Source of the DNA: an uncultured Bacilli bacterium
GTDB lineage: Bacteria > Bacillota_I > Bacilli_A > RF39 > UBA660
DNA: 64,000 nt
NCBI GenBank assembly: GCA_934086395.1
Contig: CAKOIE010000001.1
Span: 17,871 to 81,870 of the forward strand
Direction of reading: 5' to 3'
Part shown: one piece after another, positions 1,826 through 62,700 of the stretch
Layout of the letters: every line of letters begins with the position of its first letter
Numbering within the stretch: position 1 is the stretch's first letter
The notes under the pieces: model-generated
Told to the model about the DNA's origin: nothing
Databases searched by the model: none
What the model saw: only the letters and a program-made list of their open reading frames with translations
Program-made: the position numbers and the translations under genes

Positions 1826-1834
1826 AATGGCCTT

Positions 1835-3982: not shown

Positions 3983-4048
3983 CTCTCATCATTTTTATTA
4001 TACCAAAAATTAAAAATTTACGCTACATAAGTAGCAAAAAAAGAAGAA

Positions 4049-6421
4049 TTATGATAATTCTTCTTCTACATTTGTTATATTAGATAAATCTATATTATAT
4101 TCTTCTTGTTCTATTGAAAGATTGGATAAAGTAATATTATTATCAAAAACGCCTGTTTTAAAAATTTCTCTGACTACCGCAAGCATAACATCAACTACTA
4201 TACTATTACCAGCTTGTTTATACATTTGTGCTCGTGATACAACAATTTTAAAGTTGTCCGAATATCCCATAAGCCTCAAGGCTTCTCTTTCAGTAAGCAT
4301 TCTTAGCTTATCTTCTCCACCTTTATCAGTCATATAATTGTCAACACCAGCTCTATGCCTATTTCCCATTGTTGATAAGATAGTCCTTGCTACATCTAAA
4401 TCATACTTAATTGATGTTCTAAATGTTTTTGTTCCTGGAGTTAATACATATTTTCTAACCAAATCAGATAATACATATTTATCATCAACTCTTGAAGGAT
4501 CAAACTCGGACTCTTTAATTGAAATATTACCACATTCATCATATTGAAAATTACCAAATTCGCATTTTGATTCTAAAAATTGTTTCATACTAAATTTTAG
4601 TTCTATTGGTAATGGATATTCAAAATTTTTCTTTATATCTAAATCATTTCTAATGCCAACAACAAAAACTCTTCTTCTATTTTGTGGTATTCCATAATCA
4701 GCCGCATTTAATATTTGAGGTTCGGTAATATTATAATTTAAAGATTTAAAAATCCCTTTTATAATTTCCCATGTATTTCCATGATCATGTGTAGTCAATC
4801 CTCGAACATTTTCATATATAAATACTTTTGGATTTGCTTCTTTAATAATCCTTGCATATTCATAGAATAATGTACCTCTTGCATCTTCAAGGCCTCCTTT
4901 AAAGCCTACTGTTGAAAATGATTGACACGGACTTCCACCTACTAATAAATCAACTTTATCTTTATAATCAGTACCATCTAATAAGTTTATATCTAAATGA
5001 AAATCATCTTCAATTATTTTATCTCCATAATTTTCCATATAACTTTGTTTTACATAATTTTTCTTTTTGCTTTTAGAAGCATATAAATCATCTACATATT
5101 TTTTCTTTTCTAATTTGGAATTCATATTTTTTATTTTTTTAAATTCTTTTTCATGGTCATATTTAATTTCAATATCTCCATTATCACATGCAAAAACAAT
5201 TTCATATGGTGTATTATTTCTTATGAGTGCTTGTTCAATTGCACCTATACCACTGAATAATGTAGCTAGTTTTAGCTTAGGTTTTATAACATCAACTGCT
5301 TTTAATTCTTCGGTTTTAAATACGCCTGTATCTATTAGGTTTGGAATAATTTTTTCAAATATATTAACAACAATACTATTACCAGCTTGTCTATATTTAT
5401 CTTTATCTAACATTCCTTTGGGAAATTTAAATTTTTTTGAAAATCCCATAAGATTTGTACATTCTAATGGAGTTAGTTTTCTACAGGCGCCTTTTTTACC
5501 ATTATAAGTAGAAATATATGCAATATTCATAATATCAGCATTATCTTTTATTTTTTCATATGGAACAAACACAAATTCTCCATTCCAATTAAATTGTTGA
5601 TTTGCTTTTTGACATTGCATTATATTAGAATTAACTTGTGCTCTATTTTTATATTTTGGATTAGTAACAAATTCAAAACCTTTTTTACCCAAATAATACT
5701 TTGGATCAACTTTTAAGTCATCTTCCAAATAATCTTTAACTGTAGTTTTTAATTCTTCTTCTTCAGGAAATTTGAATGGAGCTGTATCTAAATCATTTCT
5801 TATACCTATAACGAATAGCCTAGGTCTATTTTGTGGTATTCCAAAATCTTTAGCATTTAATATAGGATTTTTTCTTATATATATTTTATAATTTAATTCT
5901 TTAAATGTATTTTGAACGGTTTCCCATGTTCTACCTTTATCATGATTTAGCATTCCTTTAACATTTTCAAATATAAAAGCCTTTGGTTGACATTCTTTAA
6001 TAATCCTTGCATATTCATAGAATAATGTACCTCTTGTATCATTAAATCCTCCACGTTTTCCAATTATTGAAAATGATTGGCATGGACTTCCACCTACTAG
6101 CAAATCGACTTCACCCTTATACATAGATCCATCTAAAAATCTTATATCTTGATAGAAATCTTTATCATCGATTTCATAATTTTCCTTATATGTTTGATAC
6201 ATACAATTAGGTTTTTTTAATGAACTATATAAATCATTAATATATTTATTTTTTTCTTCTAAAGACATATTTTCTATTTTTTTTAAAATTTCTTCTTTCG
6301 AATAAGGTAATTCTCTCTCACCATTATCACATGCAAAAATTATTTTATGTTTAACATCTAATTTTTCTAACGCTTGTTCAATTGCACCTATACCACTAAA
6401 TAGCGTTGCTAATTTTATCAT
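4049..6421 (-). CDS. Fused tandem DNA (cytosine-5) methyltransferase: two complete Dcm-type modules in one 790-aa polypeptide
   Basis: Each half carries the full ordered motif set: LFSGIGA (I), GGSPCQSFS (IV), ENVKGM/ENVRGL (VI), QNRPR/QNRRR (VIII) and AGNSIVV (X). The second module starts near KLKLATLFSGIGAIEQAL. Confidence 0.85.
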   Translation of the reverse strand: MIKLATLFSGIGAIEQALEKLDVKHKIIFACDNGERELPYSKEEILKKIENMSLEEKNKYINDLYSSLKKPNCMYQTYKENYEIDDKDFYQDIRFLDGSMYKGEVDLLVGGSPCQSFSIIGKRGGFNDTRGTLFYEYARIIKECQPKAFIFENVKGMLNHDKGRTWETVQNTFKELNYKIYIRKNPILNAKDFGIPQNRPRLFVIGIRNDLDTAPFKFPEEEELKTTVKDYLEDDLKVDPKYYLGKKGFEFVTNPKYKNRAQVNSNIMQCQKANQQFNWNGEFVFVPYEKIKDNADIMNIAYISTYNGKKGACRKLTPLECTNLMGFSKKFKFPKGMLDKDKYRQAGNSIVVNIFEKIIPNLIDTGVFKTEELKAVDVIKPKLKLATLFSGIGAIEQALIRNNTPYEIVFACDNGDIEIKYDHEKEFKKIKNMNSKLEKKKYVDDLYASKSKKKNYVKQSYMENYGDKIIEDDFHLDINLLDGTDYKDKVDLLVGGSPCQSFSTVGFKGGLEDARGTLFYEYARIIKEANPKVFIYENVRGLTTHDHGNTWEIIKGIFKSLNYNITEPQILNAADYGIPQNRRRVFVVGIRNDLDIKKNFEYPLPIELKFSMKQFLESKCEFGNFQYDECGNISIKESEFDPSRVDDKYVLSDLVRKYVLTPGTKTFRTSIKYDLDVARTILSTMGNRHRAGVDNYMTDKGGEDKLRMLTEREALRLMGYSDNFKIVVSRAQMYKQAGNSIVVDVMLAVVREIFKTGVFDNNITLSNLSIEQEEYNIDLSNITNVEEELS

Positions 6422-6782: not shown

Positions 6783-7457
6783 TTACTTCTTGCAAAGAAT
6801 GTGGGGTTTTCTAGTCAAGCAATAATAGGCCCTTATTCTGTATATCATATTTTTTAATTCTCTAAAATCTAAAGAGTTATCAGCAATATATCTCTTTAAT
6901 TCATTAAAGAATATTTTCTGCTCTGGAAGACTTAATTCTTCTTTTATAATCTCATTAACAAAATTTAATTTTGTCCTATTATCAGGCATTTCTATTTTCA
7001 CTTTAAATGATTCCTCCAGCGTTTTTTTTAATTGTTCACTTACTTTTAAATCACCAAGAGCAACATTGGATGATAGAATAACAACTTTGCTGTTTTTTAA
7101 TAAAATATTTAACAATTTTTCAAATTCATACATACTATTACCTGTAAAATATTGAATATCATCTACTATTAAAACTTCAGTATTTGAATATTTTTCAAGA
7201 AAATTAACTCTTTTATTCAAATCAATAACATCTTTGATAAATTCTTCACTTGTTATATATAGGACTGATTTGTTATTTTTCAAACCATTAGCTATTATAT
7301 TTAATAAATGTGTTTTCCCAATCGCCTTATTACCATAAAACATTATTAACTTATTTGATATACTTCCTTCAATGATTTTTAATGCTACATCATATGCTTC
7401 CTTATTTTCTTCATAAACTATAAAATTTTTTAATTCATAACATTCTTTCTTTACCAT
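6783..7457 (-). CDS. DnaA domain-III-only AAA+ ATPase paralogue (no domain I or domain IV)
   Basis: Aligns by eye with the host DnaA in this window: [25 protein letters not shown] vs [37 protein letters not shown] vs DVLIIDDIQFLSG; VVILSSN vs [15 protein letters not shown] vs VRQLEGAI. Start moved to ATG 7457 (M14 of the track ORF), which follows AAGGAG overlapping the upstream TAA. Confidence 0.7.
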   Translation of the reverse strand: [224 protein letters not shown]

Positions 7458-7467
7458 AAAATTCTCC

Positions 7468-8502
7468 TTACTTTTCAACGTAATAATTTCTTTCATCTAT
7501 TGCAAATAAGCATTCACTTACTGCTTGACCTCTACCAAATATATATAAGATTTTTGATAGTACATCTATAAACACATCATCACAACCATGTTCTATCATA
7601 ATATCAACATATCTTTGCCACAATTCATTTGACTTCCTCGTTCTTGATTTGTGTAATTGCTTAACAATATCTATAGCAACTTCATGTTCAATTGAATGAT
7701 TAACTAAATACTCATATACATCTTCACGATTAGAAATTACGTTATGTATATCAATCTTGCTATCTTTAAATAATTCTTCCTGATTTTTACTCCACACATG
7801 GGTGCCATGTGCTAAAGATATAACTTTAACATAGTCATCTATTGTTTTTGGTTTTAACTGCATTGCAACTTCTTTTTCAAATTCAGTATGCATTGAATAT
7901 TTTAGATCAACTTTCTTTTCTTGTATCAAAGGTTTATCATCGAGTCTAATTGTTATATACTCATCAGTAAACATATGATAATCTTCTATGGTTTCAAACT
8001 GACCAAACTCATTCAATCTAAATGACATATTGGTAGGTTGTACATAACATGGAATAAGTAAATAATGCTTATCTGCTAATTCATTTATTTCATCTACATC
8101 ACATAGTTCAAATGAACCTCTAACTATTCTAAAATTTCTTGCATACTTTTCTACTGAACTAACAAAGTCTAAGGAACAGCCATTTATGAAATCAATACAT
8201 AAAGTTTTAGCTGTGATCAACTCATAAGGTAGATTATATTTGATAGGGTCAACTTTACTAATGTCTAGAACATGGAGTAGTAACAAGTTATTAGCCATCC
8301 CTCTAAAGTGGAAACTAACAGATTTCTCCGTCTTCTTGTACTTATGTAATAACTCTATAATAAATAACAATCCTTTATCATAAAGTAAATCTACTTCTTT
8401 CTTACATCTTGTTAGAATATCATCATCTTTAATCTTGTTAGCTAGCCATACAAGAAAGTAGTCTCTAGCGTCATCATTTAACTCTTCATATTTATTATAC
8501 AT
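7468..8502 (-). CDS. Miniature, degenerate C-family (Pol III alpha / PolC-like) polymerase-core homologue
   Basis: 344 aa with a strong SD (GAAAGGAGGG). By-eye matches to DnaE/PolC landmarks: FRGMANNLLLLHVLDISKVDPIKYNLPYE vs GRGSAAGSLVAY.L.IT.IDP..Y.LLFER; SLDF vs DxDF; AHGTHVWSKNQEEL..ISNREDVYEYL vs SHGTDVWLGNAQEL..IGCRDDIMVYL; FGRGQAVSECL vs FPKAHAAAYVL. No PHP, exonuclease, beta-binding or OB regions. Confidence 0.55.
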   Translation of the reverse strand: MYNKYEELNDDARDYFLVWLANKIKDDDILTRCKKEVDLLYDKGLLFIIELLHKYKKTEKSVSFHFRGMANNLLLLHVLDISKVDPIKYNLPYELITAKTLCIDFINGCSLDFVSSVEKYARNFRIVRGSFELCDVDEINELADKHYLLIPCYVQPTNMSFRLNEFGQFETIEDYHMFTDEYITIRLDDKPLIQEKKVDLKYSMHTEFEKEVAMQLKPKTIDDYVKVISLAHGTHVWSKNQEELFKDSKIDIHNVISNREDVYEYLVNHSIEHEVAIDIVKQLHKSRTRKSNELWQRYVDIMIEHGCDDVFIDVLSKILYIFGRGQAVSECLFAIDERNYYVEK

Positions 8503-17023: not shown

Positions 17024-17554
17024 TTATAAAATAAACATTATTAAAAGTAAACATAAGACTTTGTCGAAAATTGTCCTATATGAATTTTCGTATTCTAAAA
17101 TTTTACAATTGTTTTTCTTTAATATTTGAGATTTTAGTTTTTGATAATCTTCATTATAACCTACTAATATATAATCTTTATTTAATAATTTATCTACTTT
17201 TTTATCTTGATAATATAGTTTTCCACCACTTGTTAAGAGATGATTGTTATCAAAATAAGTATATGGATGAATTATTTCAACTGTTAAATTAGATATGTTT
17301 TTAAATAAATTTTTGATTAAATATATTTCACTTGGAGAACTTTTTTCAAATAATAGAATATTTATTTTTACTTTAAATAATGAATTTAAAATTTTGTATT
17401 TATTAATTATGTCATACATTATTTTATTTAATTTAAGAAAATCATATATTTTATTATTGATAATTATGTTACATGGTATTTCTTCTTTAGAAAGTATATT
17501 TGTTTTATGATTAAAAATTAGAATATAGTTATCGGTTAATTCGAGTGTATACAT
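17024..17554 (-). CDS. Hypothetical protein with C-terminal hydrophobic tail
   Basis: 176-aa ORF abutting the upstream gene stop. No family recognised. Confidence 0.45.
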   Translation of the reverse strand: MYTLELTDNYILIFNHKTNILSKEEIPCNIIINNKIYDFLKLNKIMYDIINKYKILNSLFKVKINILLFEKSSPSEIYLIKNLFKNISNLTVEIIHPYTYFDNNHLLTSGGKLYYQDKKVDKLLNKDYILVGYNEDYQKLKSQILKKNNCKILEYENSYRTIFDKVLCLLLIMFIL

Positions 17555-18195
17555 TATTCTAATTCATTTATTTCTTTGTCATAAATTTTTGATGGGTTAA
17601 TATTGTTACCATTAAAATTTACTTCAAATAACATCATTGAACTAGCAGATGCATCTACTTTATTTGTTCCACTTTTACCGATGATATCGCCTTGATTAAC
17701 AGCTTGGCCAACAATTACATCAACGTTATTTAGGCTTTCATAAGTTGTAGTTAAGTTATTCGTGTGTCTTATTGTAATAATATTTCCTAGGATATCGTCA
17801 GTTGTTACTGATTCAATTGTTCCATCTAAAACGGCAAGTACATCAAATACGTTATCACTTCCATACATAATACCTGTATTTGGCATATAGGTGTTTTCAT
17901 ATAATATTAAGGAATTTTCTTGAGTTATATTATCTGAATCTTTATCATAGAAGTTTTTTATTATTTTAACTGTTTCATCTTGATATGGCATAATATTTTT
18001 TTTATTTTTAGTAGTACTAATAACGGGTACGGCATCATCTATTAAACCACGATATACGTATGATAATGACTCATTTGAATAAATCATTCCTTGTAAGGTT
18101 TTACCTACTAAATATAAACTTGATATTATTGTAACTATAGATACAGCATATACTGAAAAAACTACCCATCCTTTTAATTTGTATTTCTTTTTCAT
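17554..18195 (-). CDS. Membrane-anchored LytM/M23-domain protein, apparently degenerate (SpoIIQ-like)
   Basis: 213 aa with an N-terminal TM span. The LytM core is GTIESV..GNIITIRHTNNLTTTYESL..VGQAVNQGDIIGKSG. The terminal HxH position reads MMLFEV. It lies directly downstream of spoIID. Confidence 0.6.
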   Translation of the reverse strand: MKKKYKLKGWVVFSVYAVSIVTIISSLYLVGKTLQGMIYSNESLSYVYRGLIDDAVPVISTTKNKKNIMPYQDETVKIIKNFYDKDSDNITQENSLILYENTYMPNTGIMYGSDNVFDVLAVLDGTIESVTTDDILGNIITIRHTNNLTTTYESLNNVDVIVGQAVNQGDIIGKSGTNKVDASASSMMLFEVNFNGNNINPSKIYDKEINELE

Positions 18196-18240
18196 TTTTC
18201 CTCCTATTAAAAGTTTGGATAGTTTATTTTAAATTATACT

Positions 18241-19107
18241 TTAAATTTCAGATATTTCGGTATTTTCATAATAATGATTTAATATTTCTTTATAAGATGA
18301 TCCTTCTTTTGCCATTTGATTTGCACCATACTGACTCATTCCAACGCCATGACCATAACCTATTGTGGTTATAATGTAGTTGTTATCTTGTTTTTCGATG
18401 GTAAAATCTGTAGAACGAAGATTTAGTAATTTACGAAACTCAATACCTGTATATGTTTTATTATTTATAGTAATAGATTTAACGTGATTTGTTTCATTTC
18501 TTTCAATATTTTGAATATCAATATTTGACATATTTAATAGTTTATTAAGGTCTGAAGAAGAAAATGTTTTTTGAAATTTGTAATTTGGAGTATTTTCATT
18601 TTCAAGAGATTTAACACTTGTAAAAGTAGTATCATTAAAGACAGTTTGAGAGTTTTCGGTATAACCATTACTCATGGAAAAATAGTAGGTTCTAAGTATT
18701 TTATTATCTCTTTTTATTACTTCATTATGAGTGGATTTAACACAGTTATAAATTTTATTATAATATTTATTATAGTCATCATTCCATTTTTCTTTTAACT
18801 TGAAGTTAGGACTATATACTTGATCACTTATTCCTGATGTTAATTCTAGAAAGTTATTTTCTATTTTTGAAGTTGCAAAACTTCTAGCTGCTACTGCTTG
18901 GGCTTTTAAGGCTTCTTCATTAAATAAAGCGGGCATTTCGGATGCAACAACCCCGGTAATATAGTCGTTTAAATCTAGATATAAGTCTAAATCAGTTAAA
19001 TGAACAATTATTGTTTTTTCGTTATTAGAAAATAAAAAAGTAGCTTTATTAAAACTACTTATAAATATTGGTATTAAAAATAAGATTAATAATAATAATT
19101 TTTTCAT
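18241..19107 (-). CDS. spoIID: Stage II sporulation protein D (SpoIID/LytB family)
   Basis: 288 aa. Contains ALKAQAVAARSFA, YYFSMSNGYTENS and GHGVGMSQYGANQMAKEG. Confidence 0.85.
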   Translation of the reverse strand: MKKLLLLILFLIPIFISSFNKATFLFSNNEKTIIVHLTDLDLYLDLNDYITGVVASEMPALFNEEALKAQAVAARSFATSKIENNFLELTSGISDQVYSPNFKLKEKWNDDYNKYYNKIYNCVKSTHNEVIKRDNKILRTYYFSMSNGYTENSQTVFNDTTFTSVKSLENENTPNYKFQKTFSSSDLNKLLNMSNIDIQNIERNETNHVKSITINNKTYTGIEFRKLLNLRSTDFTIEKQDNNYIITTIGYGHGVGMSQYGANQMAKEGSSYKEILNHYYENTEISEI

Positions 19108-25761: not shown

Positions 25762-26277
25762 TTATTTAAACTTTTCAATTATACTAGAAATAAATAATTT
25801 GTATTCAACATCATTTGTTGTTTCGTTATTTTCAAGTAAACATAATGGAGGAAATAAGGTACACCACCAATTTTTTCCTAGACCATTACCAATTGTTATT
25901 ACTAATGAGTTATAAACTCCTGCTTCATAAACTACTCCTTTGTATGTTTTACTTGGAAAATAGTTTAAACCATAATCTAATTTGTAATTATCACTTTTTA
26001 AAAATTCATGAATTTGAATGTTGATAAAGTCTAGGTTATCAACAATTATTTTATCTACTTCTTCGGTAGTTGTAGCATTTTTAGTTAAATCTATAAGGAC
26101 TTTCTCAATGTGATCTTTAAGTTCTAGTTTAGTTTCTATATCTAATTCACTATCTGATGATGCAATTACTCTAAATCGAATAGAGTCAGTTGGGATTATT
26201 ACTTCATTTTGATTTTTATTTTTTATTAAGGTTAAACTTAAAATAATTATTGATAAACATATTAAAGTATTTTTCAT
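25762..26277 (-). CDS. spoIIR: Stage II sporulation protein R
   Basis: 171 aa. Contains a signal/TM span, IRFRVIASSDS and GKNWWCTLFPPLCL. Confidence 0.8.
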   Translation of the reverse strand: MKNTLICLSIIILSLTLIKNKNQNEVIIPTDSIRFRVIASSDSELDIETKLELKDHIEKVLIDLTKNATTTEEVDKIIVDNLDFINIQIHEFLKSDNYKLDYGLNYFPSKTYKGVVYEAGVYNSLVITIGNGLGKNWWCTLFPPLCLLENNETTNDVEYKLFISSIIEKFK

Positions 26278-29022: not shown

Positions 29023-29634
29023 TCAATGCTTGGATTTGTAGTTTTGATTATAATATTTTTTGGTATATTTATCTAATTCATTTATAAAGATATTTGCATA
29101 ATGTCTAATTTCTTGTTGTTCAAAAATATTTTGTAGATAATCTTCTAAAATGATTTGTTCACAAAGTTTAATTGCTTCTTCGATAGAGCCTGTTAATGGT
29201 ATTTTAGTTATAAAATTAGAATTATCAGGCAATTGACAATATAAAAAATATAATTCAGCTTTTAAATCTTTCTTTGTAAATGATTCTAAGCCATCAAATA
29301 AAGTAAAATTATTAAAGTAAAAATCAGATAATGCTTTTTTTCTAATATCTAAATATTTATTTAATTTAATTTTTAGGGCGTCTTCTGGTTCATTTTTTTC
29401 ATTTTGTGTTAAACTATGAGTATTTAGTTCTTCTATAAGTATTTCATTTGCTTCATTTATTTGTTTGGTTATTTTTTCAGCTAAGTCTTGTTGTTCTTTT
29501 GATGAAGTTGCAAATTTATCAGGATGCCATTTAATTATTAATTTCCGATAAGATGATTTTAATTCTTCAAATGTATAATTAACTGGTAATTTAAATAGTT
29601 TTCTTGCTTCATAAAGATTCATTTTATTATCCAT
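29023..29634 (-). CDS. J-domain (DnaJ-like) protein, tandem paralogue 1
   Basis: J domain with HPD: NLYEARKLFKLPVNYTFEELKSSYRKLIIKWHPDKF. Start moved to M20 (ATG 29634), which follows AAAAGGAGAAAA. No Gly/Phe or zinc-finger regions. Confidence 0.7.
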   Translation of the reverse strand: MDNKMNLYEARKLFKLPVNYTFEELKSSYRKLIIKWHPDKFATSSKEQQDLAEKITKQINEANEILIEELNTHSLTQNEKNEPEDALKIKLNKYLDIRKKALSDFYFNNFTLFDGLESFTKKDLKAELYFLYCQLPDNSNFITKIPLTGSIEEAIKLCEQIILEDYLQNIFEQQEIRHYANIFINELDKYTKKYYNQNYKSKH

Positions 29635-29839
29635 TTTATATTTTCTCCTTTTGATGTCGTATATTGTAGCATATATATTAGGAAAATACAACTATTTAAA
29701 TGTATATAAATTAAAAATCAAAATTAAAAGACTTATTGCAGTTTTTCCAATCAAAACCTGAAATAAGTCTAATAAATCAAATATATTTTTATAAACCTGC
29801 ATTTAATCTAAAAATTCACGTTAGTGTTAAAAATTCGTA

Positions 29840-30460
29840 TCAATGATTGGATTTTAATTTTTGAGAATAATAATTTTTGGTATATTTATCTAATTCACTA
29901 AGAAAGTTATTTATATTTTCTCTAATATATTGTTCTTCGATAATATTTTGAAGATAATCTTCTAAAATGTTTGTTTCATAAAATTTAATTGTTTCTTCGA
30001 TAGAGCCTGTTAATAATATTGTAGTTATAAAAAGAGAATTATCAGGCAATTTATAATATAGATAATATAATTCATCATTTAATTCTTTATTAGTTAATGA
30101 TTCTAATTTGGAAAATAAAGTGAAGTTATCAAGATAAAGATCTAATAATGCCTGTTTTCGAATATTTAAATATTTATCTAATTGAATTTTTATATTTTTT
30201 AAGGCTTCTTTTAGTTCATTTTTTTCATTTTGAGTTAAACTATGACTATTTAGTTCTTCTATAAGTATTTCATTTGCTTCATTTATTTGTTTAGCTATTT
30301 TTTCAGCTAAGTCCTGTTGTTCTTTTGATGAAGTTGCAAATTTATCAGGATGCCATTTAATTATTAATTTACGATAAGATGATTTTAATTCTTCAAATGT
30401 ATAATTAACTGGTAATTTAAATAGTTTTCTTGCTTCATAAAGATTCATTTTATTATCCAT
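29840..30460 (-). CDS. J-domain (DnaJ-like) protein, tandem paralogue 2
   Basis: Nearly identical J domain. Start at M20 (ATG 30460). The copies are offset by 817 bp at the stop codons and 826 bp at the starts. Confidence 0.7.
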   Translation of the reverse strand: MDNKMNLYEARKLFKLPVNYTFEELKSSYRKLIIKWHPDKFATSSKEQQDLAEKIAKQINEANEILIEELNSHSLTQNEKNELKEALKNIKIQLDKYLNIRKQALLDLYLDNFTLFSKLESLTNKELNDELYYLYYKLPDNSLFITTILLTGSIEETIKFYETNILEDYLQNIIEEQYIRENINNFLSELDKYTKNYYSQKLKSNH

Positions 30461-30536
30461 TTTATATTTTCCCCTTTTGTTATCGTGTACTATAGCATAT
30501 ATGTCAAGGAAATACAACTATTTAAATGTATATACA

Positions 30537-32828: not shown

Positions 32829-32859
32829 AATGACTTATGAAAATTAATCATAGGTCATT
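32829..32859. terminator. Bidirectional hairpin between the convergent PBP and noc-like genes
   Basis: AATGACTTATGA (32829-40) pairs with TCATAGGTCATT (32848-59), one G-U pair. T-rich tracts lie on both sides. The hairpin overlaps the noc-like TGA stop. Confidence 0.5.
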
Positions 32860-34087
32860 TATTTATTTTAATTATTGCTTGATATAAATCTGAAAAATCG
32901 TAATCTTCAAATTCAATATTGAAACCAGCATCTTTTATTTCTTTATTTAAATCAGAGATGGCTTTTTTTACACTATTTAAATCTTTTGGTATAATTCTTG
33001 GCTTAGGTGGTTCAACTGGTGTTTCGGGTACAACGATTGGTTCTGTTACTTCTAATTTTGGTTCTTCTTTTTCTTCACTAATTGGTTCTTCAGGTTGTTC
33101 TGGTACCAAAATATCACTTTCGATGCCTAAATCCATATTTGTTTGTAAATCTTCTAGAGATGGATAATCTGGTTTTGGTTCTTTTCCAATTGTTGGAATA
33201 TCAAATATATTTGTACTATTATCAGGTTGAGGTTTTGTTGGTACTTGTTCTTTTTCTTGAATTTCCTTAATTTCAGGATCTGGGTTTACTTCAATAGTTT
33301 CTTCTTTTGGAACTGGTTCTATTTTAGATTCAGTTATTGGTTGATCCTCTTTTGATTCAACAACTGGTGGAACAAATTTTGGCTCTTGATCACTTAATGG
33401 TTCTTCAGGAAATTTTACATTAAATAAATCTAATGAATCACTAATATTAGGAACCTCTGGTATTTTAAATGATAGATTTGGACTTATTGGACTAGTTAAC
33501 TTGCTTATTTCATTATCTAAATCTTTAACTGTTAATCTTTCATTAATAACTTTGTTTAACATTTCTTCTTGTTTATCTAGTGATGATAATTTGAGTAATG
33601 CTCTTGCATGACGCTCACTTATTTTATTTTCACTTAAGGCTTGTTTAACAGGTTCGGCAAGACTTAGAAGTCTTAATTTATTAGCAATAGTACTTTGAGA
33701 TACACCTATTTCTTTAGCTAGTTCTTCTTGCGTTTTTAAACCTTGGTCTAATATTCTCTTATACGATTTTGCTTCTTCCATTGGGTTTAAATTTCTTCTT
33801 TGAACATTTTCAATAACAGCTACTTGAGCACTTTTATAATCACTTAAATTTCTAACGATAACGGGTACTTTAGTTAGGCCAGCAAGACATGCAGCTTTGT
33901 AACGTCTTTCACCTGCAATAATTTCATATTTATCATTTAATTGTCTTACGATAATTGGTTCAATAATTCCATGTTCTTTTATAGAATCAGCAAGTTCATT
34001 TAAAGCCTTTTCATCAAAAACAAGACGTGGTTGAAAACGATTTGGGATTATTAAATCTATACTTACATTTAAAATTGCATTTTCCAT
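32855..34087 (-). CDS. noc: ParB-family protein, Noc-like, with a ~170-aa Pro/Glu-rich insert
   Basis: 410 aa. Contains IIPNRFQPR, IIAGERRYKA and the HTH GVSQSTIANKLRLLSL...ISERHARAL (B. subtilis Noc: GKGQSTIANKLRLLKL...ITERHARAL). The C-terminus ..AGFNIEFEDYDFSDLYQAIIKINK resembles the Noc C-terminus. It sits in the rsmG-proximal position. Confidence 0.65.
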   Translation of the reverse strand: MENAILNVSIDLIIPNRFQPRLVFDEKALNELADSIKEHGIIEPIIVRQLNDKYEIIAGERRYKAACLAGLTKVPVIVRNLSDYKSAQVAVIENVQRRNLNPMEEAKSYKRILDQGLKTQEELAKEIGVSQSTIANKLRLLSLAEPVKQALSENKISERHARALLKLSSLDKQEEMLNKVINERLTVKDLDNEISKLTSPISPNLSFKIPEVPNISDSLDLFNVKFPEEPLSDQEPKFVPPVVESKEDQPITESKIEPVPKEETIEVNPDPEIKEIQEKEQVPTKPQPDNSTNIFDIPTIGKEPKPDYPSLEDLQTNMDLGIESDILVPEQPEEPISEEKEEPKLEVTEPIVVPETPVEPPKPRIIPKDLNSVKKAISDLNKEIKDAGFNIEFEDYDFSDLYQAIIKINK

Positions 34088-42991: not shown

Positions 42992-43166
42992 TTTTCCACA
43001 ATAATGTGTGGAAAAGTGGAAAACTTTTTAACAATGTGAATTTAAAATTGTTGAAATTGTGGATAAGTTGTTTACATTCCGATAAAATGGACTTATTTTT
43101 GTGGAAAAGTATGTGTATAACTATGTTTAAAAAAAATTTTTGTATTTTTTTCTTTATTTTTCCACA
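42992..43166. promoter_or_regulatory. oriC part 1: DnaA-box cluster upstream of dnaA
   Basis: TTTTCCACA at 42992-43000 and 43158-43166. TGTGGAAAA at 43007-15 and 43100-08. AGTGGAAAA at 43015-23. A perfect TGTGGATAA (rc TTATCCACA) at 43058-66. AT-rich tracts lie in between. Confidence 0.85.
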
Positions 43167-43215
43167 ATCGTGGTTTACAATAGGGGTAGCAAAAACGAAG
43201 TATCGGGGTGATGGT

Positions 43216-44598
43216 ATGGACAATGAACAATTATGGAATAAATTTTTAAAAGAAATTCAAATTAAGATACAACCATTTTCTTTTAATAGTTGGTTAAAAC
43301 CCACGAAATTACTAGGGATAAATGAAAATTCTTGTATTGTAGAGGTTGAGAGTGAGTTTCAAAAAACATTTCTTTCTAAGAACTATACTGACTTAATGAG
43401 TGAAGTTTTATATGGAATAACTAATGTTAATTATGATTTTGAATTTGTTCTTAAAAGTGAAAAACATAATGAAGAAATTATTAAAGAAGAGAAAAGCGTT
43501 GAAACAAAAAATCTTGGCAAATCCCTAGAAATAGAGCATAAAAAGTTAAATTCGAATTTAAAACCAGAGTATACTTTTGATAATTTTATTGTTGGAGATA
43601 CTAATAGATTTGCGACTGTTTCAGCTCAAGCGGTAGCAGAAAATCCGGGGAAAATATATAATCCTTTATTTATATATGGAAAGAGTGGTCTTGGTAAAAC
43701 CCATTTAATGCATGCGATAGGAAATCAGATTGTTAAAAATTCTGGGAAAGTTGTTTTATATGTAACTAGTAGTGAATTTATTGCAGACTTTACTGGAATG
43801 CTTAGAAAAGATAAGAATGTTGATAATTATGAGGTTATGAACAATTTTAAAGATAAATATCGTAACATTGATGTTCTTATTATAGATGATATTCAATTTT
43901 TATCGGGAGCTGATAAATCACAAGATGAATTTTTCCATACATTTACTGAATTATACGATTCAAATAAACAAATAATTATAAGTTCAGATAGATCGCCAGA
44001 TGATTTAAAATTATTGGAAGAACGTCTATTAACTAGATTTAGATGGGGTTTAACAGCGAATATTTATCCACCAGATTTTGAACTTAGATGTCAAATTCTT
44101 AGAAATAAGATGATGGGGCATGAGGTGGCGGAAATGGTTAGTGATAAAGTAATTGAATATATTGCTTCTAATTGTGATAATGACGTTAGACAATTAGAGG
44201 GAGCAATAACTAGATTGTATGCTTACGCTGCAATGATGAGACCACCAGAAATAAATGTTGAATTTGCAACAGAAGCACTTAAAGAATTTTTGGGCAAATC
44301 AATTTATATAACAAATAATATTCAAAGGATTCAAAGAGCTGTTGCTGAATATTTTAACTTAAGTGTTGAGGATTTAAAAAGTAAGAAGAGAAATGCGAAC
44401 ATAAATTATGCAAGACAAATTGCAATATATTTAAGCCAAACTACTACTGATGAGACTCTTGTTAAAATAGGACTTGAATTTGGAAATAGAGACCATTCAA
44501 CAGTTATACATGCATGTGATAAAATAGAAGAGGATATTAACACAAATGCGAAGTTAAAAGATGATATTGAGAACATAAAAAATAAAATTGTTAATTAA
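43216..44598 (+). CDS. dnaA: Chromosomal replication initiator DnaA
   Basis: Start taken at M71 of the track ORF (MDNEQLWNKFLKEIQ). Contains GKSGLGKTHL, LIIDDIQFL and a C-terminal HTH with DHSTVIHA. Confidence 0.92.
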   Translation: MDNEQLWNKFLKEIQIKIQPFSFNSWLKPTKLLGINENSCIVEVESEFQKTFLSKNYTDLMSEVLYGITNVNYDFEFVLKSEKHNEEIIKEEKSVETKNLGKSLEIEHKKLNSNLKPEYTFDNFIVGDTNRFATVSAQAVAENPGKIYNPLFIYGKSGLGKTHLMHAIGNQIVKNSGKVVLYVTSSEFIADFTGMLRKDKNVDNYEVMNNFKDKYRNIDVLIIDDIQFLSGADKSQDEFFHTFTELYDSNKQIIISSDRSPDDLKLLEERLLTRFRWGLTANIYPPDFELRCQILRNKMMGHEVAEMVSDKVIEYIASNCDNDVRQLEGAITRLYAYAAMMRPPEINVEFATEALKEFLGKSIYITNNIQRIQRAVAEYFNLSVEDLKSKKRNANINYARQIAIYLSQTTTDETLVKIGLEFGNRDHSTVIHACDKIEEDINTNAKLKDDIENIKNKIVN

Positions 44599-44668
44599 TG
44601 TGGAAAAGTTCTAAAATAAAAATTTTAAAGAAAGCCTTTAAAATAGAGAAGTTTTAGAGTTTTCCACA
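44599..44668. promoter_or_regulatory. oriC part 2: DnaA boxes between dnaA and dnaN
   Basis: TGTGGAAAA at 44599-44607 and TTTTCCACA at 44660-44668. Confidence 0.7.
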
Positions 44669-45920: not shown

Positions 45921-45961
45921 ATGTTGTGATTTAATATACGACTAAAGAGGGGGTGAGTAGT

Positions 45962-46411
45962 TTGAAAAGTTATAAGATTACAGAAAATACATTAGCGATT
46001 GTACCATTAAGTAAAAAGAAAACAGTTGTATATGAAAATCACGATTATTATATTTTAGATAAGAATGTATCATCAGTTATTAATGAAAATTGCGAATATT
46101 ATGGAAGCAGTATTGATGGTAGATTAAAAGGAACTTATGCTATGCTTGGTTTTGGTTATAAGGCTCCAATTGTTATGTCTGAACAAGATAATATGATATT
46201 TTTTCCAACATGTTCTCCTAGATTAAAAGAATGTTCTTGGATTAATTTAGGAAATATAAAAAAAATAGTTCCGGATGACGAAAAAACAACTATTCAATTT
46301 TTAAATGATGAAGAAATAAATGTAGATGCAACTTATAATATAATAAGAAATCAATACTTTAAATCTTTGTCGCTTGATAATGCATTAAAAAATAGAAAAA
46401 AAGATAAATAA
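45962..46411 (+). CDS. ComK-family transcription factor homologue
   Basis: CEYYGSSIDGRLKGTYAMLGFGYKAPIVMSEQDNMIFFPTCSPRLKECSWIN aligns with B. subtilis ComK CRFFGSSYAGRKAGTYEVTKISHKPPIMVDPSNQIFLFPTLSSTRPQCGWIS. TTG 45962 is preferred over GTG 45953 on SD spacing (AGAGGGGG). Confidence 0.75.
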   Translation: MKSYKITENTLAIVPLSKKKTVVYENHDYYILDKNVSSVINENCEYYGSSIDGRLKGTYAMLGFGYKAPIVMSEQDNMIFFPTCSPRLKECSWINLGNIKKIVPDDEKTTIQFLNDEEINVDATYNIIRNQYFKSLSLDNALKNRKKDK

Positions 46412-52114: not shown

Positions 52115-52224
52115 TTTATATCGTTTTTCTTTTGATTTAAAAAGTTTTCCACATTTTTTTCATTTCAATATTTAAATTTTAGTTAGTTATTTATTAACAT
52201 TTTATTTATATATTTTAAAAAATT

Positions 52225-52238
52225 ATTTCCCGGGAAAT
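52225..52238. promoter_or_regulatory. Noc-binding-site (NBS) palindrome 1
   Basis: ATTTCCCGGGAAAT is perfect, embedded in a longer perfect palindrome AATTATTTCCCGGGAAATAATT (52221-52242). Confidence 0.7.
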
Positions 52239-52338
52239 AATTTTTTTATAATTTAATAATAATTTTTTATTAATCTAATAATTTTATGATCTTTTATTAT
52301 CCTTTTCAAAAGTTATTAACATTATTTTAATTATTTAT

Positions 52339-52352
52339 GTTTCACGTGAAAC
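52339..52352. promoter_or_regulatory. parS site 1
   Basis: GTTTCACGTGAAAC is perfect. The 16-mer TGTTTCACGTGAAACT matches the consensus at 15/16. Confidence 0.8.
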
Positions 52353-52390
52353 TTGTGTTATAGATATGTAATAATAAATATATTTATTAA

Positions 52391-52404
52391 GTTTCACGTG
52401 AAAC
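52391..52404. promoter_or_regulatory. parS site 2
   Basis: GTTTCACGTGAAAC is perfect. The 16-mer matches at 15/16. Confidence 0.8.
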
Positions 52405-52437
52405 ATATATGATTTTTATAGTATTTATTGTAAAATT

Positions 52438-52451
52438 ATTTCCCGGGAAAT
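52438..52451. promoter_or_regulatory. NBS palindrome 2
   Basis: ATTTCCCGGGAAAT is perfect, within AATTATTTCCCGGGAAATAATT (52434-52455). Confidence 0.7.
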
Positions 52452-52606
52452 AATTTGTTCGATTTTATTTCTATTAAGACTCTTAATTTTATTCTTTTTA
52501 ATTAATTATTATATTATAAATTTTTATATATTGATTAATTAATTTTTTCTTAATATTTAATTATTTTTTAATACTTTTAATTTATTAATTATATGTATTT
52601 TGTGAT

Positions 52607-52620
52607 GTTTCACGTGAAAC
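52607..52620. promoter_or_regulatory. parS site 3
   Basis: GTTTCACGTGAAAC is perfect. The 16-mer matches at 15/16. Confidence 0.8.
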
Positions 52621-52743
52621 TTATGCGAATTGTTTTTTTTTTATGATTCAGATAGTTAAATTTGTTTATAATATATTATTTTCTTAAGTTAAATTATTTA
52701 TGAATTATATTTAAATAATTTTGCTTATATATGTTCTTGTTAT

Positions 52744-52757
52744 GTTTCACGTGAAAC
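52744..52757. promoter_or_regulatory. parS site 4
   Basis: Perfect 16-mer TGTTTCACGTGAAACA at 52743-52758. Confidence 0.85.
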
Positions 52758-52878
52758 ATAATATTTAATTTTATTGATTGATTTATTATTCATAGTATTT
52801 AAATATAACTTATATTATTTTATATACAATTTTGTTTATATTCTTATTGTTATTAACAATATCTTTATTTTTTTATAA

Positions 52879-52892
52879 GTTTCACGTGAAAC
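52879..52892. promoter_or_regulatory. parS site 5
   Basis: GTTTCACGTGAAAC is perfect. The 16-mer matches at 15/16. Confidence 0.8.
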
Positions 52893-53086
52893 ATCAATGA
52901 TTTTTGTTTTTAATATAATGTAAATTATTTTATTTATTTAATGAAATTTTTATAAAAAAATCATTATTGTTTTATTTAACAATTTTAGAATATTATTTAC
53001 TAAATATTAATTTATCTTTTTTTATATATTAATTAATTAATTTTAATATTTGATTATTTTTAAATCATTATTATATATTTTGTAAT

Positions 53087-53100
53087 GTTTCATGTGAAAC
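53087..53100. promoter_or_regulatory. parS-like site 6 (variant)
   Basis: GTTTCATGTGAAAC, with one central C-to-T change. Confidence 0.6.
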
Positions 53101-53245
53101 TTATTTTTTTATATATAATTTTTTGGTAATTATTTATGATTCAGATATTTAAATTTATTTATATAAATGTTTATATACTATTTTTTAGGTTAATTTAATA
53201 ACAATTTATACTGATAAAAAAATTTGCTTGTATATGTTCTTGTTA

Positions 53246-53259
53246 TGTTTCACGTGAAA
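53246..53259. promoter_or_regulatory. parS site 7
   Basis: Perfect 16-mer TGTTTCACGTGAAACA at 53245-53260. Confidence 0.85.
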
Positions 53260-53314
53260 CATTAATGATTATTATTTTATATAATATAAATTATTTTATT
53301 TATTTAGTGAAATT

Positions 53315-53328
53315 ATTTCCCGGGAAAT
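53315..53328. promoter_or_regulatory. NBS palindrome 3
   Basis: ATTTCCCGGGAAAT is perfect, within AATTATTTCCCGGGAAATAATT (53311-53332). Confidence 0.7.
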
Positions 53329-53451
53329 AATTTGAGAGCTTATTTATAAAAAAATTATTTTTGTTTTATTTAACAATTTTAAAATATTATTTACTAGATA
53401 TTAATTTATTTTTTTAATATATTAATTAATTAATTTTATATATTTTGTAAT

Positions 53452-53465
53452 GTTTCACGTGAAAC
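53452..53465. promoter_or_regulatory. parS site 8
   Basis: Perfect 16-mer TGTTTCACGTGAAACA at 53451-53466. Confidence 0.85.
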
Positions 53466-53519
53466 ATCAATGAATATTGTTTTATATAATATAAATTATT
53501 TTATCTGTTTAGTAAAATT

Positions 53520-53533
53520 ATTTCCCGGGAAAT
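53520..53533. promoter_or_regulatory. NBS palindrome 4
   Basis: ATTTCCCGGGAAAT is perfect, within AATTATTTCCCGGGAAATAATT (53516-53537). Confidence 0.7.
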
Positions 53534-53669
53534 AATTTGTTCGATATTTAATTATTAATTCTTATATATTGTGTAGTAATTAATATGATTTTATTATTAT
53601 TTTAAATATTTTAAAAGTTTTCCACATTATTTTCTTGTTATCTATTAATTGTTGTGGTATATTATATTT

Positions 53670-59775: not shown

Positions 59776-62700
59776 ATGGATTTTTTAGATAAAATATTTG
59801 ATGAATTTAATAGTAATTCTATTTCAGGATTAACTGATGAATTAAAGGGATTATATATTAAATATCTAAGTTATAAATTTAATAAAAATGTAATTGTTGT
59901 AACTAATTCATTATATCAGGCAACTAATTATTATAATTTAATCAATAACTATTTTGATAATAGTTACTTTTTTCCTATGGATGATTTTATAACTACCGTT
60001 CTTACAACTTCTTCTCCTGATTTAATGGTTAAAAGATTAGAAACTTTGTCTTTAATAAGTAAAAATAATGAAAATAAGATTCTTGTTACTAATTTAGAAG
60101 GATTTTTAAAGTTTGTTCCTAAAAAAGATAATATTGTAAATCAGGATATTGTTATTAAAATAAATGATAATTTTAAACGTACTGATTTAGAAGATAAATT
60201 ATTTCAATATGGTTATAATAAGACAAGTATAGTTACTTCAACTGGAGAATATTCTGTTAGAGGTTTTATAATTGATTTATTTCCGTATAATTATGATAAA
60301 CCAATAAGAATTGAATTTTTTGGTGATGAAATAGATAGTATTAAAAAGTTTGATGAAGAATCTCAGCTATCCACCGAAAATATTAGTGATGTTACCATTA
60401 AACCTTATAAGGAAAATGATTTAGAATCTGACTCAACTTTATATGATATTTTAGACAATCCGATAGTTGTTAAGATAGATTCTGATAATATTAAGAAATC
60501 TTATCTTGAATTACAAAACCAAATTCTTGAGTATAAAGAATCTAATAATATTGATATTAATCATAAATATATGGCAAATTTAGAAGATATTTATATTAAA
60601 GATGAATATGAACTTAATAATTTTGATAATAGTAAAAGTTTGAAGGTTAATTCTCAATCAATAGATAATTTTAATTCTAATTTGGAAAATTTACAATTTT
60701 TTATTAATCATCGTAAAAATAGTATGATTACATTTCTGGCAATAAAATCTAAGGGATTAAAAGAAACTTTAAGTAATTTATTTGATGTAAGTATTGATAA
60801 AAATTATTTCCCGGGAAATATTTATTTTTTAGATTATAAGATAAATCATGGTTTTGTATTTGATAAATATATTGTTATTTCAGAAAATGATATTGTTGGA
60901 AGTAATTTTAGTGCTTCTTATTATAATCCGATTAAGATAGGTCGTAAGATTAAGGATTTTAGTGATATTAAACCGGGAGATTATGTTGTTCATAGGGCAC
61001 ATGGTATCGGTATTTATGGTGGTGTAGTTAATTTAGTTAAAAATGGTTTTAATAAAGACTATATTGTTATAAAGTATGCTGGTAATGACAAGGTATATAT
61101 TCCTGTTGAAAAGATTAGTTCTATTTATAAATATGCTGATGCCGGTAGTGGAAATCAAAAAATTAATTCTTTAAATTCTTTATCTTGGGCTAAAGCTAAA
61201 AGAAAGGTTCAAAGTAAAATTAAAGATATTTCTGATGAGTTAATTAAACTTTATTCGGAAAGAAAGAAGATTACTAGTCCGGTATTTAAAGAGATGCCTG
61301 AAGAAGTCATGTTTGCTAGTGATTTTGAATATGTAGAGACTTCTGATCAGTTAAGATGTATTAATGAAGTATTAAATGATTTGGCAAGTAAGAAACCAAT
61401 GGATAGATTGCTTTGTGGTGATGTAGGTTTTGGTAAGACTGAAGTTGCATTTAGAGGAATTTTTAGAACTGTTACTAATGGATATCAAGCAGCTTATTTA
61501 TGTCCGACTACTATTTTATCTAAACAACAATATGAAAATGCTTTAAAAAGATTTAGAAATTTTCCGATTAGAATTGAAATTGTTAATAGATTTACAACTG
61601 CCAATGATTTCAAAAGAATTACTAAGGATTTGGAAGATGGTAAAGTAGATATTTTATTTGGAACTCATAAATTATTTAATGAAAATATAAAATTTAAAAA
61701 ATTAGGACTTCTTGTTGTTGATGAGGAACAACGATTTGGTGTTAGTCAAAAAGAAAAAATTAAAGAAATGTGTACAAGCATTAATGTATTAACTTTATCT
61801 GCAACACCTATTCCTAGAACTTTGAAAATGGCAATGAGTGGACTTAGAGATTTATCAATTTTAGATACTGCACCTGTGGATAGATATCCAATTCAAACTT
61901 ATGTGGCTCAAGATAATGATTTCTTGGTTAAAGAGGCTATTTATAAAGAATTAAGTCGAAGGGGACAAGTTTACTACTTATTTAATAATGTTGAAAAGAT
62001 AGAAGATGAATTAAATAAATTACAGGGAATGGTTCCGGAAGCACGTATTTGTTTTGCTCATGGTAAGATGGATAAATCTCATTTGGAAAAGATAATTGAC
62101 GATTTTGTTAACTATAAATTTGATATTTTAGTTTGTACGACAATAATTGAAACTGGTATAGATATATCGAACGTTAATACATTGATAATAAAAGATGTTC
62201 AAAACTTTGGATTAAGTCAGTTATATCAAATTCGTGGTAGAGTTGGAAGAACAAATAAGATTGCTTATGCTTATTTACTTTATAATAATAGTAAAATTAT
62301 AAGTGAAGTTGCTGAAAAGAGATTGAATGCGATTAAAGAGTTTACTGAACTTGGTAGTGGTTATAAAATCGCTATGAGAGATTTATCTATTAGAGGTGCT
62401 GGAGATTTACTTGGTAGTGAACAGGCAGGATTCATAGAAACCGTTGGTATTGATTTATTTACTAAGATGGTGGAAGAGGCTGTATCTGAAATAAATGGTA
62501 ATCCGATTAAAGAAGATGACAGTGATAAATCATTGATTGATGTAAATACTCATATTGATGAAGATTATGTTCAAGATGAAAGTGTTAGAATTGAGATTCA
62601 CCAATTAATTAATTCAATTTCGGATAAGGAAAGTTTGTTAAGAGTTAAAAGTGAATTAGAGGATCGTTTTGGTAAATTGGATGAGAAAATAATTGTTTAT

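Follow-up and report, generated by a model that had tools for sequence, protein, structure and literature searches.

The window analyzed here, a 64-kb stretch of DNA from an uncultured Bacilli bacterium, lies on an 89.8-kb contig (guanine-plus-cytosine [GC] content, 25%) from a human-gut metagenome and spans the replication origin. The genes at the origin are arranged in the order rnpA and rpmH; dnaA, dnaN, a ComK-family gene, recF, gyrB, and gyrA; the array that is the subject of this report; and then the signal recognition particle (SRP) RNA gene, tadA, dnaX, ybaB, and recR. The array fills the 1.5-kb gyrA-tadA spacer and is composed of two kinds of palindromes, parS, the loading site of the segregation protein ParB (Spo0J in Bacillus subtilis), and the Noc-binding site (NBS). 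ParB and Noc are textbook paralogous DNA clamps that depend on cytidine triphosphate (CTP); they are regarded as using separate sets of sites, which they recognize with "exquisite specificity," and as having separate jobs. Located after gyrA and 7.5 to 9 kb (~8 kb) to the right of oriC, the array has the origin-proximal position that is characteristic of parS.

A composite parS/NBS array in the gyrA-tadA spacer

The spacer is non-coding. Its longest open reading frame (ORF) has at most 45 amino acids, promoter-like and terminator-like sites are not in excess within it, and it contains no Rfam family beyond the adjacent SRP RNA and no small ORFs of note. An earlier sequence-only reading of this DNA had reported perfect copies of the NBS 14-mer (ATTTCCCGGGAAAT) at 52225, 52438, 53315, and 53520, each enclosed by a 22-bp palindrome (AATTATTTCCCGGGAAATAATT). 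These positions are exact, and all four palindromes in fact extend to 24 bp (AAATTATTTCCCGGGAAATAATTT). The count of four stands for the array, but a fifth copy had been missed: when the NBS is defined as (T)ATTTCCCGGGAAAT(A), which is distinct from parS at positions 1 and 6, the window contains five perfect copies, the fifth being a solitary 16-bp NBS (TATTTCCCGGGAAATA) of the dispersed class within mfd. Four of the five are located in one 1.3-kb array, interleaved with parS. The chance expectation for the 14-mer at up to two mismatches is 0.28, and five matches were reached in none of 100 shuffled sequences; chance occurrence of the motifs was rejected.

The parS palindrome (16 bp, TGTTNCACGTGAAACA) is present in the spacer at eight sites with zero to two mismatches. 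Of these, three match perfectly (TGTTTCACGTGAAACA) and four deviate at a single outer base; the one at 53086, with two mismatches, may be weakened. Elsewhere in the 64-kb window, no parS-like site with fewer than three mismatches was found. The order of the sites, N-PP-N-PPPPP-N-P-N (N, NBS; P, parS), is the one given in the sequence-only reading, and canonical parS alternates with canonical NBS. The array contains only degenerate segmental repeats, with spacings of ~205, 365 to 394, and 480 to 503 bp. The features are as follows.

52115..53658, no strand: non-coding spacer from the gyrA stop codon to the SRP RNA gene, 17% GC, with the whole composite array inside
52221..52242, no strand: NBS 1, core 52225-52238, in 22-bp palindrome
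52338..52353, no strand: parS 1, TGTTTCACGTGAAACT, one outer-base mismatch
52390..52405, no strand: parS 2, one outer-base mismatch, centre 47 bp from that of NBS 2
52434..52455, no strand: NBS 2, core 52438-52451
52606..52621, no strand: parS 3, one mismatch
52743..52758, no strand: parS 4, perfect 16-mer
52878..52893, no strand: parS 5, one mismatch
53086..53101, no strand: parS 6, TGTTTCATGTGAAACT, two mismatches, including central CG to TG
53246..53261, no strand: parS 7, perfect, centre 68 bp from that of NBS 3
53311..53332, no strand: NBS 3, core 53315-53328
53451..53466, no strand: parS 8, perfect, centre 68 bp from that of NBS 4
53516..53537, no strand: NBS 4, core 53520-53533
60805..60820, no strand: solitary perfect NBS within mfd

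A terminator hairpin was also considered as the identity of the NBS palindrome and was rejected, as a T-run follows the first copy only.

Conservation of the array in strains and related species

Eight strain-level contigs, including the window's own, were found by way of an identical TadA protein, and the array is kept in all of them. Besides the window's own, six strain spacers are complete and range in length from 1172 to 2074 bp; the seven complete strain arrays contain 3 to 6 NBS and 5 to 11 parS. The spacers are only 81 to 88% identical, compared with 97 to 98% for the adjacent gyrA gene, and the cores stay exact. All strain loci likewise keep the solitary NBS in mfd, that of L008 with a single mismatch.

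When GTDB species genomes were scanned for a parS core with an NBS core within the following 28 to 58 nucleotides, at least 120 loci were returned. As this pattern demands one parS-NBS pair, prevalence and alternation are somewhat inflated in this set. At least 116 of the loci have a GC content of 22 to 31%; nearly all of these are from uncultured gut metagenome-assembled genomes (MAGs), which are labeled Bacilli, Erysipelotrichaceae, Mycoplasma, Tenericutes, or Clostridium sp. in the International Nucleotide Sequence Database Collaboration records and include closed chromosomes of 1.3 to 1.5 Mb. Among the 120 matches listed, 96 lie beside gyrA and 94 beside tadA. Many relatives keep the interleaving, and it is non-random. 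The clade consensus for parS is ATGTTTCACGTGAAACAT, and that for the NBS is AAA(T)TATTTCCCGGGAAATA(A)TTT. Since the flanks AAA(T)T...A(A)TTT are conserved clade-wide, the extended palindrome is a conserved feature and not just a by-product of recent duplication.

The most regular arrays are strictly alternating tandem repeats. In L083 (OZ006981.1, a closed 1.31-Mb MAG), positions 4442-5534 contain 13.2 copies of an 83-bp unit with 95% identity, and each unit has one NBS, one parS, and one ACAGTGGAAAA (TTTTCCAC-like) motif, with internal spacings of 36 and 47 bp. Strictly alternating tandem arrays were also found in L054 (13 NBS and 12 parS) and L037 (11 of each). We propose that the array grows and shrinks by duplication and deletion of units and that selection holds both cores exact. 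Outside the arrays, isolated NBS occur about once per 25 kb, and isolated parS are rare.

These data also bear on the concern, voiced in the sequence-only reading itself, that the 22-mer might be the repeat of a dispersed mobile element. In the broader form considered here, this would be a mobile or repetitive element (REP- or MITE-like, that is, a repetitive extragenic palindrome or miniature inverted-repeat transposable element; phage-derived; or restriction-related) whose core happens to match the NBS. The sites are indeed palindromic, repeated, AT-rich, variable in copy number, and contain a SmaI/XmaI site. Against this, a single copy lies outside the array in 64 kb, 2.9 million viral contigs (IMG/VR) gave two single matches, the position beside gyrA is fixed in the 96 listed species mentioned above, and the two motifs exactly match the sites that have been defined by experiment for ParB and Noc. 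We consider the mobile-element explanation to be effectively refuted.

Order and helical spacing of the two site classes

The statistics in this section rest on the at least 120 loci listed, and since the species are related, these are not fully independent samples. Together, the loci contain 403 exact cores of parS and 355 of the NBS; hybrids at positions 1 and 6 amount to about one half-site. The near absence of hybrids indicates two separate specificities, and hence two readers, rather than one promiscuous reader. For the same reason, namely that the two classes are fully discrete, the competition between the two proteins that had been suggested as one meaning of the arrangement is unlikely. 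Along the arrays, parS and NBS alternate 315 times, compared with 230 +/- 9 times in shuffles. There is no polarity of the parS-to-NBS unit relative to oriC, and bracketing of parS runs by NBS is not significant (p = 0.11 to 0.15), so that a simple boundary or insulator version of an interplay is unsupported.

The centre-to-centre distances between neighboring parS and NBS peak at 36 to 37, 46 to 49, 57 to 58, and 68 to 70 bp. A period of 10.6 bp fits them best, and the phase, ~4.4 bp, amounts to nearly half a helical turn (~n + 0.4 turns). When each distance was counted once per locus, the periodicity power was 0.31, compared with 0.18 for the 99.9th percentile of the null distribution; when one distance was taken per independent sequence group, it was 0.29, compared with 0.27 to 0.28 for the 99th percentile, and under this most conservative resampling, the phasing is borderline (p ~0.01). 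The peak at 36 to 37 bp and the troughs at 51, 61 to 64, and 71 to 72 bp are features that the search pattern cannot produce. No significant period was found for parS-parS or NBS-NBS distances. The three short parS-NBS steps of the window (47, 68, and 68 bp) are on the preferred phase. With a spacing of ~n + 0.4 turns, neighboring dimers would face roughly opposite sides of the DNA, and the helical phasing suggests an interplay of the two proteins.

A simpler explanation is that the two site classes share a location without any interplay. The spacer would then be the only large non-coding landing pad available near oriC in these compact genomes, in which ParB sites and sites for the Noc-like protein described below accumulate independently and are both multiplied by tandem duplication, with ParB serving segregation and SMC loading and the Noc-like protein its dispersed-site role. 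The visible origin of the arrays by unit duplication, the range of NBS numbers among related species (0 to 13), the isolated NBS outside the arrays, and the lack of both polarity and bracketing are all in line with this. What argues against it is that the heterotypic spacing is helically phased and the homotypic spacing is not, that alternation exceeds that in shuffles, that the density of NBS in the arrays is ~100 times the density outside them, and that the cores are exact although the spacers diverge 5 to 8 times faster than gyrA. On balance, we regard mere co-location as rather unlikely.

A Noc-like protein predicted to bind the NBS

The window contains one gene of the ParB family.

32855..34087, minus strand: 410-amino-acid ParB-family protein, predicted NBS reader, the only ParB-family gene in the window

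The protein has a ParB N-terminal domain (PF02195, 5.5e-34) with intact CTP motifs, GERR and ENxQR, which are invariant across the Noc-like family. In a comparison with solved structures, its first 200 residues score higher with Noc (187 bits) than with Spo0J (163 bits). The NCBIfam Noc model TIGR04285 gives 276.4 bits, which is below the curated cutoff of 315, and covers profile positions 2 to 195 of 255. The specificity residues of the helix-turn-helix are Q-K-S-R (Q173, K179, and R201 in Caulobacter numbering), compared with Q-K-K-R in Noc and R-x-x-G in ParB. In previous work, Q173 was found to read A1 and R201 to read C6 of the NBS, with one lysine at 179 or 184 being sufficient, and in a deep mutational scan, parS binding required R173, while dual-specificity variants had mostly T or S at 201 (Jalal 2020). 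Because it has Q173, K179, and R201, the protein is predicted under these rules to bind the NBS and not parS, in agreement with the sequence-only reading, in which it was named as the Noc-like protein.

This pattern is shared by the family. In an alignment of the 150 best representatives (50%-identity clusters), all 150 have Q173 and R201, position 179 is K in 147, R in 2, and T in 1, and N, S, T, or A is usual at position 184. All 150 also have the same architecture, with lengths of 242 to 821 amino acids. A short acidic or polar N terminus of 15 to 21 residues is found in 142 of them; ~17 residues precede the PNRFQPR motif. The alignment of the window's protein with Noc begins at Noc residue 28 or 29, and its gene has no in-frame start upstream, so the N-terminal amphipathic helix (amino acids 1 to 10), α2, and the loop are missing. 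These elements are Noc specific and, according to published work, are required for membrane binding and function. As the membrane-targeting helix is missing, membrane tethering of the origin region, which had been put forward as a role of the array, is unsupported. The ParB domain and helix-turn-helix are followed by a Glu/Pro-rich linker of ~160 amino acids, the length of which is highly variable between family members, and then by a conserved C-terminal helix and β-hairpin. This module comprises the C-terminal 45 amino acids (32855-33000; ...GF.I..EE.DFEDLYQIIIKI.K) and is one helix plus a β-hairpin in a confident AlphaFold model (predicted local distance difference test score, 91). It has no sequence match in the PDB and no fold match in Foldseek; it may resemble the C-terminal dimerization domain of ParB and Noc.

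In two distant members of the family (L135 and L136), the gene directly follows rsmG, which is where noc is classically found, and in the window, one ABC-transporter gene lies between rsmG and the Noc-like gene. The Noc-like protein is probably a positional orthologue of Noc, yet it is not a canonical Noc: as judged from its sequence, it appears to have lost the membrane-targeting helix and gained a long acidic, proline-rich linker.

Weighing a two-clamp array and the search for the parS reader

Taken together, the discrete site classes, their alternation and helical phasing, and the Noc-like protein lead us to the reading that we favor, namely that the spacer is probably a composite, centromere-like array for the loading of two ParB-family CTP clamps that interact. 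Several points weigh against it. The binding of both proteins to their sites is predicted, the phasing becomes borderline under conservative resampling, bracketing is lacking, and the search pattern inflates the prevalence. In addition, a motif-blind sample of relatives, taken through TadA homologues with 74, 63, 56, 53, and 47% identity, gave a mixed picture. The 74% homologue is accompanied by an interleaved array and the 63% homologue by a parS-NBS pair at a contig end. The spacer contains four parS and no NBS in the case of the 56% homologue, five parS and one NBS in that of the 53% homologue, and neither motif in that of the 47% homologue. Owing to this variable content, the NBS are regarded as not essential to the parS cluster. 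Thus, the parS cluster at gyrA-tadA is the broader feature; within a subclade, NBS are often interleaved with it, though to a variable extent. Two gyrA-tadA spacers without NBS are as follows.

5566-6001 of L140, a very prevalent sister species: four parS, no NBS
5165-6001 of L143, a more distant relative: neither motif

The main weakness of this reading concerns the reader of parS. Pfam tables contain no R173/G201-type ParB gene and no ParA gene in the ~74 kb around oriC of this species, and none is present among the 116 low-GC clade loci listed. Furthermore, the Noc-like gene is not followed by soj-spo0J, which normally comes after noc, in any of three lineages (the window, L135, and L136). 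When fragments of B. subtilis Spo0J and Noc were used in tblastn searches against the at least 120 loci, the sole canonical ParB match was in the outlier L087. Nevertheless, because parS forms a cluster of its own in L140 and is exact in at least 116 species, a canonical ParB is very probably encoded elsewhere in the genome.

The same absences could be explained if Spo0J and Soj had been lost and the Noc-like protein, perhaps with two binding modes, or a factor outside the ParB family acted on parS too. We consider this very improbable. Binding to parS needs R173, the family has the NBS-specific residues Q173 and R201, and variants with dual specificity are mostly T or S at position 201 (Jalal 2020). 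Moreover, the site classes are discrete, with coupled positions 1 and 6, while a promiscuous reader would tolerate hybrids. Finally, the parS-only cluster that L140 keeps indicates that parS is maintained on its own account.

The outlier L087 is of interest in its own right. In this Synergistaceae MAG (60% GC; 6892-7264 and 7279-7998), two parS-NBS pairs with distances of 55 and 46 bp lie directly upstream of a canonical parB (R-K-Q-G). Pairs of parS and NBS are also present in L012 (Clostridia, 41% GC) and L089 (Erysipelotrichaceae, 45% GC). Adjacency of the two sites may therefore reach beyond the low-GC clade, as the lineage of L087 is outside the Firmicutes.

The origin, DnaA boxes, and other genes of the window

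DnaA-box clusters are present on both sides of dnaA, and DnaA-box-like 16-mers mark the two edges of the array.

42992..44668, no strand: oriC, DnaA-box clusters on both sides of dnaA (42992-43166 and 44599-44668)
52140..52155, plus strand: DnaA-box-like 16-mer AAAAGTTTTCCACATT, left array edge
53613..53628, plus strand: identical copy of this 16-mer, right array edge
43013-43028, minus strand: copy of this 16-mer with one mismatch, inside oriC

Both edge copies are kept in every strain variant in which that edge could be examined. Over the at least 120 loci, the density of strict DnaA boxes in the arrays is 2.3 times that found elsewhere. A search for a third conserved motif in the arrays gave only variants of parS and NBS (GTTCCACGTGAAAC and ATTTCCTGGGAAAT) and this weak excess of DnaA boxes.

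It is conceivable that the array serves to gather the Noc-like protein, ParB, and DnaA beside oriC and so to tune replication initiation and that segregation is not its primary purpose, an explanation that is compatible with the two-clamp reading. The distance of 8 kb from oriC, the identical 16-mers that flank the array and recur in oriC, and the density of DnaA boxes all fit. There is also a precedent, as Staphylococcus aureus Noc is reported to control replication initiation (PMC5540599). On the other hand, a strict DnaA box is present in just 28 of the 120 arrays listed, and no third motif is conserved clade-wide. As the primary function, replication control is in our view quite improbable.

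Other genes of the window were noted as well. The ComK-family gene (PF06338, 3e-34; 45953-46411, plus strand) lies between dnaN and recF, a position that is occupied by yaaA in many Firmicutes, and it is kept in the relative L135 (125-589), whose Noc-like protein is 50% identical. A defense island at the left end (716-6421) encodes McrBC, an AAA/nSTAND ATPase with an McrB lid, and a 790-amino-acid DNA methylase. On the minus strand at 6783-8502, a 237-amino-acid protein with a DnaA-type ATPase domain is encoded beside a 344-amino-acid protein with weak similarity to the fingers of DNA polymerase III alpha; the two may form a helicase-loader pair or, alternatively, a mobile replication module. 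Between rpoE and a PBP1A gene, the minus strand encodes two tandem paralogues of ~220 amino acids, each with a DnaJ domain (29023-29691 and 29840-30517). Sporulation genes (spoIID, an M23 peptidase gene, and spoIIR) are located at 17554-19107 and 25762-26277 of this 25% GC genome, the closed relatives of which have chromosomes of only 1.3 to 1.5 Mb.

Discussion

In the two-clamp reading that we favor, a canonical ParB, whose gene would be outside the window, would read parS, and the protein encoded at 32855-34087 would read the extended 24-bp NBS. Both proteins would nucleate side by side on opposite faces of the DNA and could build one compact two-component nucleoprotein complex at the origin. 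Instead of tethering the DNA to the membrane, the NBS-bound protein might halt ParB clamps or keep them inside the array, just as KorA stalls KorB. A more specific form of this proposal, to which we hold only tentatively, is a heterotypic two-clamp partition complex, in which a Noc paralogue without the membrane switch has been recruited to the centromere and is physically paired with ParB at a fixed phase.

With the Spo0J(ParB)/parS system of B. subtilis, the array has in common a 16-bp palindrome that is origin proximal, present at several sites per chromosome, and a loading site for a CTP-dependent sliding clamp. In B. subtilis, parS sites are found across much of the origin-proximal chromosome, whereas here eight sites are located within 1.2 kb of one spacer and are interleaved with NBS; furthermore, parB is missing from the vicinity of noc and rsmG, where it is normally found. 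The B. subtilis Noc/NBS system shares with ours the identical 14/16-bp NBS core, the base-reading residues, and isolated NBS in coding DNA, and in L135 and L136, the gene is also located next to rsmG, as noc is. To our knowledge, B. subtilis NBS are not organized with parS. They are scattered over the chromosome (Jalal 2020), unlike the NBS described here, which have an extended form of 24 bp and are crowded together with parS in a phased array. Canonical NBS are further marked by their absence from the terminus region; the DNA covered here is origin proximal. The protein differs from B. subtilis Noc as well, as it is without the N-terminal helix, α2, and loop, has a TIGR04285 score below the cutoff, and has a long and variable linker.

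Other systems resemble the array in part. The sopC centromere of the F plasmid consists of tandem repeats with one SopB palindrome each, and the tandem array of L083 is similar to such iterated plasmid centromeres in its head-to-tail units with a ParB-family palindrome. However, the array of L083 is chromosomal and has two different palindromes per unit for two paralogous readers, and that of the window is degenerate and irregular. The nearest mechanistic precedent for a heterotypic interplay is KorB of plasmid RK2, a ParB-family CTP clamp, the sliding of which is stopped and locked by KorA at a neighboring specific site (PMC11790492). Unlike the protein described here, KorA is not a ParB paralogue, and KorB and KorA silence promoters. 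We know of no interaction between ParB and a Noc-type protein. In B. subtilis, RacA binds to a cluster of ram palindromes near oriC and, as a dedicated protein, organizes or anchors the origin region in a spore former. GC-rich palindromes near oriC and a clade with sporulation genes are also found here, but the protein family and the motif are unrelated to RacA and ram, and there is no sign of polar anchoring.

The sequence-only reading had held the arrangement to be undescribed, and consistent with this, no description of a natural mixed parS/NBS array was found in full-text searches. The papers found treat parS and NBS as distinct sets of sites, and both have been put to artificial use in DNA labeling. 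The parts, namely, parS, NBS, and proteins of the ParB/Noc family, are known. What is new is the phased, interleaved, and sometimes perfectly tandem array, the fact that a large uncultured clade keeps it at one position on the chromosome, and its pairing with a Noc-type protein without a membrane switch.

In summary, two clamps that are known for their separate site sets have neighboring loading sites in at least 116 species, repeatedly and with a preferred helical spacing. The Noc-type protein, moreover, is stripped of the one feature that defines nucleoid occlusion. This provides a natural system for asking whether ParB-family clamps block, trap, or recruit one another on DNA, what limits the spreading of ParB, and what a Noc-type protein does without the membrane. 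The 83-bp two-site unit is a ready design for in vitro single-molecule tests and for two-color DNA labeling. If the heterotypic complex exists, it would provide the first example in nature of two ParB-family CTP switches communicating directly, and it might also replace ParA-dependent functions in a clade without the soj-spo0J operon at the ancestral locus. Finally, the array belongs to a widespread group of uncultured gut bacteria with small genomes.

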